NCBI GenBank assembly: GCA_964016885.1
Contig: OZ024743.1
Coordinates: 145,576,001 to 145,640,000, forward strand
Direction of reading: 5' to 3'
Length of the DNA: 64,000 nucleotides
From: Eledone cirrhosa
Lineage: Eukaryota
The stretch's first letter is position 1. The number at the start of each line of letters is the position of its first letter. Below are positions 27,701 through 36,415 of the stretch, one piece after another. A program made the position numbers and the translations under genes. Under the pieces are notes generated by a model, which was not told where the DNA came from, did no database searches, and saw nothing but the letters and a program-made list of their open reading frames with translations.

Positions 27701-28292
27701 CACACACACACACACATACATACATACATACATACATACATACATACATACATACATACATACATACATACATACATACATACATACATACAAACATGGC
27801 AAAAATAATCTACACAATTATATCTAATTTCGAAAATCAGAATAAACGACTAAAGAGTATATTACTCGAAAGATCCATTAATATTAATTTATAACAAAAT
27901 AAAATGTGCTAACAAGATAGACATTCATGAATTACGAAAAACAAGAAACACTTCTGACCCTCCCAATACTTTACCTTATATATCAATACACAACACAAGA
28001 AATACAGTAGCATATAATATCCACCAGAATATTGAATTATTGATGGAAGACCCAAGAGTGAAAAAAGCACTCGAAATACACAAAATAAATAAAATTAAAG
28101 TATAACCAAAGTCCTCTAAAATTACTTACCAGAGCCAAATTTCGCACTAAAAATACAACCCCAACTGTTCTAACTGCAGATTCTGCATTAATCTTATTGC
28201 ATGTTCACCATATGAATTTAAAGCAGGACAAGCATTTGTCATTGAAAGAGGCATTTCAACTTTGTATCAATTTGCATTAATTTAAGTTATTA

Positions 28293-34616: not shown

Positions 34617-35048
34617 TTCCTTTGCCGAAAAAAGAAGTAAGTAGTCACTACTTTAAAATGATAGCGCAAGGTCTTCAAAATGTTTATATTACCAAATACA
34701 CTATACATACATTCATATATATATATATATGTGTATATATATATATAATGTATAATAAACAATACAATATAATTACCTCATTACCAGAGGTTTCCCGAAT
34801 AAGACGAATACGAAAAGCGTCCTCATTCGTTCGTCGGACAAGGCAATTACAAGGCAATATATATATATAATCACTGCCTCCTCGATGTCACGTGATTGAT
34901 TCTTTTTGAATTTGCCACGGACATGGAGGCAGTGATTTTCTCAATGGCTTGGAATCCAGTCCACGCTTCGCTATTTCCATTCCACTGAATTATTTTTTTA
35001 ATAAGTTTCCAGTGTCTTCGCTATGCCTGGAGACCTATACGGAAAAAG

Positions 35049-35131
35049 ACTTTCCTGATGACGGAATGATTTTCCATATGATTCTTCGGAAAATATATTT
35101 ACTCCATTCCAGAAACAAATTAGTTGGAAGT
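35049..35131 (+). ncRNA. type I hammerhead ribozyme, family F (enlarged domain II)
   Basis: ACTTTC-CTGATGA-cGGAATG[ATTTTCC..GGAAAAT]CATTCCa-GAAA-CAAATTAG-TT-GGAAGT; one T>A change in stem III. Confidence 0.8.
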
Positions 35132-35573
35132 GATTTTTTAGTAAGTAAGTTAATTTTATAATTTTCTTATTTTACGTCTCTCATATTATTGTTCTGCAAC
35201 CCCATGCATTGAACCACATTGTTAATAAGACAAAACCTATATATTTGCTAGCATTGATATGCATCTGTGTGTATATAAATGTTACTAGATATAAATTCCT
35301 TATAATTATCTCCAATTCATTTGTCGAGCAATATTTGGCCATGACTGCTACTATGGTAGTAAGCTGGCCGCTGTCTTAATAACCACTCGCTTTCCACTGA
35401 TTGACCTCGATGTCACGTGATTGATTCTTTTTGAATTTGCCACGGACGTGGAGGCAGTGATTTTCTCAATGGCTTGGAATCCAGTCCACGCTTCGCTATT
35501 TCCATTCCACTGAATTATTTTTTTAATAAGTTTCCAGTGTCCTCGCTATGCCTGGAGACCTATACGGAAAAAG

Positions 35574-35656
35574 ACTTTCCTGATGACGGAATGATTTTCC
35601 ATATGATTCTTCGGAAAATATATTTACTCCATTCCAGAAACTAATTAGTTGGAAGT
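35574..35656 (+). ncRNA. type I hammerhead ribozyme, family F
   Basis: as above with intact palindromic stem III CTAATTAG. Confidence 0.87.
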
Positions 35657-36098
35657 GATTTTTTAGTAAGTAAGTTAATTTTATAATTTTCTTATTTTAC
35701 GTCTCTCATATTATTGTTCTGCAACCCCATGCATTGAACCACATTGTTAATAAGACAAAACCTATATATTTGCTAGCATTGATATGCATTTGTGTGTATA
35801 TAAATGTTACTAGATATAAATTCCTTATAATTATCTCCAATTCATTTGTCGAGCAATATTTGGCCATGACTGCTACTATGGTAGTAAGCTGGCCGCTGTC
35901 TTAATAACCACTCGCTTTCCACTGATTGACCTCGATGTCACGTGATTGATTCTTTTTGAATTTGCCACGGACGTGGAGGCAGTGATTTTCTCAATGGCTT
36001 GGAATCCAGTCCACGCTTCGCTATTTCCATTCCACTGAATTATTTTTTTAATAAGTTTCCAGTGTCCTCGCTATGCCTGGAGACCTATACGGAAAAAG

Positions 36099-36181
36099 AC
36101 TTTCCTGATGACGGAATGATTTTCCATATGATTCTTCGGAAAATATATTTACTCCATTCCAGAAACTAATTAGTTGGAAGT
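36099..36181 (+). ncRNA. type I hammerhead ribozyme, family F
   Basis: same as 35574-35656. Confidence 0.87.
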
Positions 36182-36347
36182 GATTTTTTAGTAAGTAAGT
36201 TAATTTTATAATTTTCTTATTTTACGTCTCTCATATTATTGTTCTGCAACCCCATGCATTGAACCACATTGTTAATAAGACAAAACCTATATATTTGCTA
36301 GCATTGATATGCATCTGTGTGTATATAAATGTTACTAGATATAAATT

Positions 36348-36415
<68 letters not shown>

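Follow-up and report, generated by a model that had tools for sequence, protein, structure and literature searches.

A high-copy 525-bp retrozyme-type element with a predicted internal-loop pseudoknot in its hammerhead ribozyme and Penelope-like insertion ends

The 64,000-nt window of Eledone cirrhosa DNA analysed here holds, at 34880-36354 (+), a tandem array of 525-bp units carrying hammerhead ribozyme (HHR) motifs with a 50-nt domain II, and the locus raises the question of whether such a motif is a genuine RNA structure and, if so, what kind of element carries it and how this element spreads. The motif of this family (family A) is a genuine RNA structure under selection, and its element belongs to a known class. 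On balance we consider it probable that the array arose by recent insertion of a retrozyme-type element that is non-coding and present in high copy: its HHR, predicted to be pseudoknotted, would cut as a dimer, and the circularised RNA would be copied into (TA)n by the enzymes of a Penelope-like element (PLE).

The array comprises 2.8 copies, is 5'-truncated and ends at the fixed 3' end of its family in (TA)n, which lies directly beyond 36354; within it, 943 of 948 positions are identical at a period of 525. An inverted short piece of the unit (34866-34879, -) lies at the 5' junction beside (TA)n. The first-pass annotation had proposed a hammerhead-type motif in a retrozyme-like array, and this was borne out by three cores, with CUGAUGA starting at 35055, 35580 and 36105; the distance to GAAA, put there at about 50 nt, is exactly 50 nt in all three. 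GAAA is followed in each copy by a 10-nt self-complementary segment and then GUU, the flanks pair as stem I, and cuts are predicted after GUU at 35125, 35650 and 36175. The three HHRs, all on the plus strand, occupy 35023-35157, 35548-35682 and 36073-36207; in copy 1, a stem III mismatch at 35117 disrupts the palindrome. Copy 2 has its core at 35580-35586 and 35637-35640, stem Ia at 35574-35579/35651-35656, stem Ib at 35558-35562/35667-35671, the self-complementary stem III segment ACUAAUUAGU at 35640-35649 and its predicted cut at 35650/35651. The unit exhibits the core CUGANGA, GAAA and NUH in type I order, with three helices around it.

Features of a non-LTR retrozyme are likewise present: the tandem units each carry a type I HHR, the cut-to-cut monomer (35651-36175, +), a predicted 525-nt RNA circle, has a GC content of 35% and hence below 45%, and its longest ATG frame of 53 aa marks it as non-coding. 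As a circle, this monomer has a predicted fold of -128 kcal/mol versus -97 +/- 6 kcal/mol for 40 shuffles (z about -5). The monomer length had been singled out as unusual, a view that the published ranges do not support: 525 nt lies above the range of 170-400 nt (PMC7229834), yet within that of 51-972 bp (10.64898/2026.07.22.740005), and the window itself carries 470-bp HHR arrays. A splice-donor-like GTAAGT, GTAAAT or GTAATT sits directly 3' of stem I in families A-D (35666-35675 in the window), and no acceptor was found; introns are known from PLE terminal repeats. A scan for bacterial promoters gave chance level.

Domain II of copy 2 (35587-35636, +) consists of a C.A base, a 6-bp basal helix (GGAAUG/CAUUCC, 35588-35593/35630-35635), an internal loop and a distal hairpin with a UUCG loop. 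It had been described as a basal helix plus an inner hairpin, of which the helix stands; the energy-folded hairpin of UUUUCC with a GGAAAA inside domain II is not the conserved one, as across subfamilies the conserved distal hairpin sits further in and UUUUCC forms a strand of the internal loop. The covariation that the enlarged domain II was expected to display across copies was found in the basal helix and the distal hairpin. In an alignment of 54 copies, hand-chosen from 219 distinct ones to span the subfamilies, 95.2% of the cells of the named structure are paired, compared to 31-53% in slid controls; nine pairs are changed on both sides, with two compensatory columns in the basal helix and six in the distal hairpin. 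Since stems I and III barely vary, the covariation supports mainly stem II. For family B (17 rows), 94.6% of cells are paired. The relative on the minus strand of the window (50142-50420, core at 50399), which is a lone, truncated member of a sister subfamily and shares about 70% identity with the 525-bp unit, does carry the reported G-C to C-G swap in its basal helix (GCAAUG/CAUUGC) together with a distal hairpin that differs from that of the array.

At the base of stem II, family A has C.A at 10.1/11.1 and not G10.1-C11.1, a pair that most HHRs share and that is strongly, though not strictly, conserved: with neither base fixed in the search pattern, the first 100 matches have C in 99 cases and A in all, and an invariant G-C lies directly beyond. 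Family C and one subfamily of family B combine the canonical pair with this long arm. A U.U at this position has been reported in an HHR (PMC3088659), and the literature passages compared contain no test of C.A. In case of the window copies, domain II is predicted to prefer, by 2.6 kcal/mol, an alternative hairpin that hides L2, the pyrimidine 5' strand of the domain II internal loop; this strand is free in the predicted fold of seven out of nine representatives, and the window copy may hence fold less well than its family, because its own changes shift the domain II minimum. Folding of single HHR sequences was uninformative (z -0.4 to -1.7), and RNAalifold paired the core wrongly with stem III.

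In stem I, an internal loop has a 5' strand (L1) complementary to L2, and the two loops, which both lie 5-7 bp from the core, are predicted to pair in a pseudoknot of 5-7 bp; in copy 2 the partners would be GGAAAA at 35566-35571 (L1) and UUUUCC at 35595-35600 (L2), both on the plus strand. Within family A the L1/L2 sequences are GAGAA/UUCUC in most subfamilies and GAAAA/UUUUC or GGAAA/UUUUC in the clade of the window. In the 54-row alignment 97.4% of the cells in these columns are paired, with one G-C to A-U change, and a matching L2 was present in 25 of 26 copies picked for a changed L1. The A-U change maps to a single, weakly supported branch (60/75) of a tree built without the L1/L2 columns and is therefore counted once within family A; a test for a second independent origin did not show one.

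Other families extend this comparison. A pattern for other stem III loops gave 1,223 matches versus 32 in controls, and 94 of the first 100 belong to family B, with L1/L2 GGAAAA/UUUUCC and monomers of 485 and 525-527 nt; the window carries one such copy (46688-47172, +; HHR 46945-47076) of like architecture, with a U.U stem II base, the L1/L2 pair of its family and the stem III sequence ACUGUACAGU, and a model built from the family A alignment scored this distant copy at 31 bits. A descriptor scan of 328 stored sequences provided families C (AAAGA/UCUUU) and D (UGAGU/ACUCA and GAGCU/AGCUC), with three copies each. A Watson-Crick L1/L2 run of 5-6 bp is present in 10 of 11 representatives, which stand for four families, and is matched by 0-2.3% of background (upstream) windows; the test windows were set after the pairing had been seen. 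Family E fails this test, and the pseudoknot claim leaves out families E, F2 and F3. The latter two have a domain II of about 60 nt (F2, L132-L159) and about 38 nt (F3, L149 and L163-L165), with bases left unpaired where stem II begins and an unclear L1-L2 pairing. The occurrence of the predicted pseudoknot in four families with differing complementary sequences supports the pairing.

The stem III loops AAUU, GUAC and GAUC are self-complementary in every case, with the palindrome kept in 91 of the 94 listed family B copies. Stem III hairpins are predicted at +1.5 kcal/mol and two-copy duplexes at -9 to -13.6 kcal/mol (-9.0 kcal/mol for the window segment), and folding under constraint favours the double hammerhead over two singles by 4.9 kcal/mol. 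The hammerhead fold lies above the free minimum by 9.6 kcal/mol for a single copy and by 16-21 kcal/mol for two copies, the pseudoknot being left out of these energies. A palindromic stem III points to dimer cleavage, and the RNA is likely to cut best as a two-copy dimer. Eight of nine dimers of Xenopus retrozymes were without in vitro cleavage (10.64898/2026.07.22.740005), and in tested natural HHRs stem I-II pseudoknots raise activity, which compensatory mutations restore (PMC3088659).

How widespread the architecture is was assessed by pattern searches of the 3.0-Gb genome. CTGATGA-N30-60-GAAACTAATTAGTT gave 9,073 matches and its reversed control none, which excludes chance for the motif; allowing a non-U at the free position 7 added 1,630 matches, again with none in the reversed control, and this is the sole core change seen at the level of families. 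With the core left free, 6,229 matches were obtained, of which the first 100 contain 81 intact cores (counted by eye), the remainder having scattered single core changes. By pattern matches the genome thus contains over ten thousand related copies. The matches listed are the first 100 of each search and lie nearly all on contig C1; copies of the 525-bp unit are dispersed over many chromosomes, and among stored loci we found 75 distinct cut-to-cut monomers of 507-571 nt, joined head to tail at full length. Two tandem copies on contig C1 of this genome (G000, 65582252 and 65582793) have the same G8 core change, which could have arisen by copying of one dead-core template or by gene conversion. 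A search of metagenome contigs gave no match.

No Rfam hammerhead reaches the gathering threshold in the window, none appears over the array at E<=10, and none was present among the 150 matches listed of 203 at four loci. The prediction that standard HHR models would miss such variants therefore stands as far as Rfam is concerned, whilst its attribution to domain II holds only in part, because the compact HHRs of the window (18.5 of 52 bits) also score below gathering, though they are less completely missed. Five compact HHRs with ACUAGU stem III lie in an inverted array of 470-bp units at 44133-46645 and give HH9 matches below threshold only. The window further contains a 310-bp tandem array with relatives (1-1418, 56671, 57101) whose compact type I HHR has a U.U stem II base and ACGCGU stem III, with an inverted array of the same family at locus L166, and single HHR motifs of other families at 8648 and 15988 (-) and at 2368 (-). 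Beyond what the first-pass annotation had described are the L1-L2 pseudoknot, the C.A stem II base, the palindromic stem III, the Penelope-like ends and the copy number.

The ends were scored at 20 loci of the subfamily of the window (1,727 candidates). Of 34 internal 3' ends, 33 lie either 61 or 179 nt past the cut site, two positions 118 nt apart; in the array, the "tail" between them corresponds to 35711-35829 (+), and its limits are the inferred start sites of reverse transcription. The 5' ends vary, the flanks are (TA)n and the copies are partial tandems, mostly of one to three units; 13 of the 20 loci are inverted, 12 of these with one arm at each end. In family B, the two 3' ends are separated by about 110 nt. 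A 5' truncation of variable extent, together with partial tandems, inverted 5' copies and a pair of fixed 3' ends, characterises a non-autonomous PLE, and these features match published PLE insertions, which are truncated and inverted and in the case of Hydra and Naiad PLEs target (TA)n (Craig 2021, 10.1101/2021.04.23.441226), as well as the two internal reverse transcriptase (RT) starts that bound a 30-40 bp tail downstream of the HHR in the Poseidon PLE of the anole (PMC11167929). As the copies extend backwards over one to three cut sites, their template must have been circular or uncut.

In a small sample of 30 GIY-YIG loci and 30 Hydra-like RT loci, together with the HHR loci, no homology of the unit to the terminal repeat of an autonomous PLE was found. 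The GIY-YIG search, the Hydra-like RT search and a model scan of 72 loci revealed this HHR only as separate insertions. Four candidate linkages between HHR and ORF (L166, L167, L129 and L309) were rejected, since (TA)n separates the two in each, and spacings of 2.8 kb and 5.5 kb proved to be duplications containing other elements. The Hydra-like RT has no relative in viral contigs. The putative Hydra-like and Neptune-like identities of nearby ORFs follow in part motifs from Craig 2021. In one Hydra-like PLE family, 12 nt of the 3' region match the motif located where the first fixed end of family A lies (L129 1410-1422, L225 and L011), which may be chance. Within the window, a fragment of a PLE GIY-YIG endonuclease region lies at 27793-28258, and a near-perfect inverted repeat at 49890-50085, also present in L143 and L166, belongs to another (TA)n-flanked element.

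With a pseudoknot and a dimer fold inferred for the 525-bp element, a route of mobilisation can be proposed from the literature. L1-L2 pairing would hold stems I and II together, the two-copy dimer would cut after GUU to release a 525-nt RNA and the host tRNA ligase would circularise it; the RT of a PLE would then prime internally at two sites, located 61 and 179 nt beyond the cut, and PLE enzymes would copy the circular, or an uncut multimeric, template back into (TA)n repeats. The closest competitor accepts that the fold is selected and holds that cleavage is slow or protein-dependent, with the PLE RT copying uncut multimers and the long arm acting as a protein-binding or folding element. 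We regard this as possible, at about one chance in four. In the anole PLE, HHR mutants insert normally, uncut RNA is inserted, and the HHR cuts only with protein, with no RNA ends at the cut site (PMC11167929); PLE HHRs show low in vitro activity (PMC4209133), and here the C.A stem II base and an active fold above the free minimum point the same way, with the short arrays explicable by uncut transcripts. Such a role sits less well with the retention of the core, the stem III palindrome and the L1/L2 pairing across families of otherwise little similarity, with the predicted folding of the unit as a strongly self-paired circle, and with the cleavage and circle formation observed in those invertebrate retrozymes that have been tested to date (PMC7229834).

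The L1-L2 pairing might instead restrain cleavage, as in the plant satellite RNA ribozyme of Miller and Silver 1991, although we deem this unlikely. That ribozyme is of type III and is reported to combine an enlarged stem II, a loop 1-loop 2 pseudoknot that attenuates cleavage and double-hammerhead cleavage, and reportedly Song in 1999 found the double hammerhead to be needed. A long stem II, loop pairing and a dimer-type stem III are combined here too, and a review sentence states that loop contacts control the satellite RNA ribozyme (PMC6155905); however, the activating effect of stem I-II pseudoknots in tested natural HHRs (PMC3088659) argues in the opposite direction, as does the distance of both loops from the core, which is the usual place of activating contacts (PMC7936874). 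We hold it very improbable that the repeat lacks independent mobility, being either a locally expanded satellite or a terminal repeat that belongs to an autonomous PLE. Retrozymes do derive from PLE terminal repeats (10.64898/2026.07.22.740005), and our sample consists of about 330 stored loci, but the head-to-tail joins of the 75 monomers are of full length, no copy examined enters an ORF, the nearby Hydra-like ORFs are set off by (TA)n and the copies are found on many chromosomes.

In the features compared, the element fits both non-LTR retrozymes and non-autonomous PLEs. It shares with animal non-LTR retrozymes (Cervera and de la Pena 2020, PMC7229834; Li et al. 2026, 10.64898/2026.07.22.740005) the tandem, non-coding, low-GC units with type I HHR, the palindromic helix III, a highly self-paired monomer, thousands of copies and the presence in molluscs. 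In contrast, those elements have a 4-bp stem II with a short loop where the present one has a 50-nt domain II with internal loop and distal hairpin, their L1-L2 contact is usually non-canonical whereas Watson-Crick pairing is predicted here, and the monomers of 485-571 nt and the two fixed PLE-like 3' ends set the present element apart, such ends being undescribed in the excerpts on retrozymes. In common with the HHRs of PLE terminal repeats (Cervera and de la Pena 2014, PMC4209133) are a helix II that exceeds the usual length (6-8 bp), an unpaired base after A9, the palindromic helix III and the dimer fold; in those HHRs helix III is minimal or absent and loop 1 is ill-defined, whereas here helix III comprises 10 nt, a defined stem I internal loop is predicted to pair with domain II and an extra A precedes GAAA. 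The Poseidon PLE of Anolis (Frangieh 2024, PMC11167929) starts reverse transcription at two internal sites bounding a tail, as inferred here, and it and the Hydra/Naiad PLEs likewise give truncated or inverted insertions in AT-rich or (TA)n targets; unlike the present element, they encode RT and endonuclease, and the tail is 30-40 bp there but about 110-118 bp here.

Loop pairing between stems I and II is in itself no novelty: Watson-Crick pairing of this kind has been reported for all three HHR types (Perreault 2011, PMC3088659), and it also occurs in the HHRs of HDV-like circular RNAs, where long stems carry an internal loop 1 (PMC7936874), and in the human C10 HHR. In the passages compared on these pseudoknotted HHRs, however, a terminal loop or tail pairs with a loop, and in CChMVd (-) the internal loop 2 pairs with hairpin loop 1 (PMC2632901), whilst here both partners would be internal loops, each closed by another helix. 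HHR pseudoknots are already known, and the monomer length lies within published ranges; an architecture with an internal-loop-to-internal-loop pseudoknot in a non-LTR retrozyme or non-autonomous PLE was not found described. The titles, abstracts and main-text passages compared, mostly from open-access papers, contained neither a type I HHR in which two internal loops pair nor cephalopod retrozymes; the supplements of PMC4209133, PMC7229834, PMC3088659, Craig 2021 and 10.64898/2026.07.22.740005 may hold similar motifs.

The element adds to the hammerhead repertoire an architecture in which an internal loop-internal loop pseudoknot, a long capped stem II and a dimer-type stem III are combined, and as Rfam misses this architecture, which has over 12,000 pattern matches in a single genome, counts of animal ribozymes and retrozymes may be underestimates. 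Its families are natural compensatory variants that bear on whether loop pairing acts as an activator or a restraint of cleavage. Through the pair of fixed 3' ends, the insertion of retrozymes is linked with internal priming as demonstrated in one Penelope-like element, and by this link the choice between a circular and an uncut template becomes testable in the 525-nt unit. A bolder and rather doubtful interpretation is that of a distinct HHR subclass with kissing internal loops, in which the distal hairpin is a regulatory handle and the ribozyme remains inactive until engaged by another copy or by the protein of the partner retrotransposon. If this were true, it would be a natural switchable hammerhead that times circle formation, with more than 12,000 copies in at least four families, and the switchable subclass would probably be present in many genomes, where compact descriptors have missed it.
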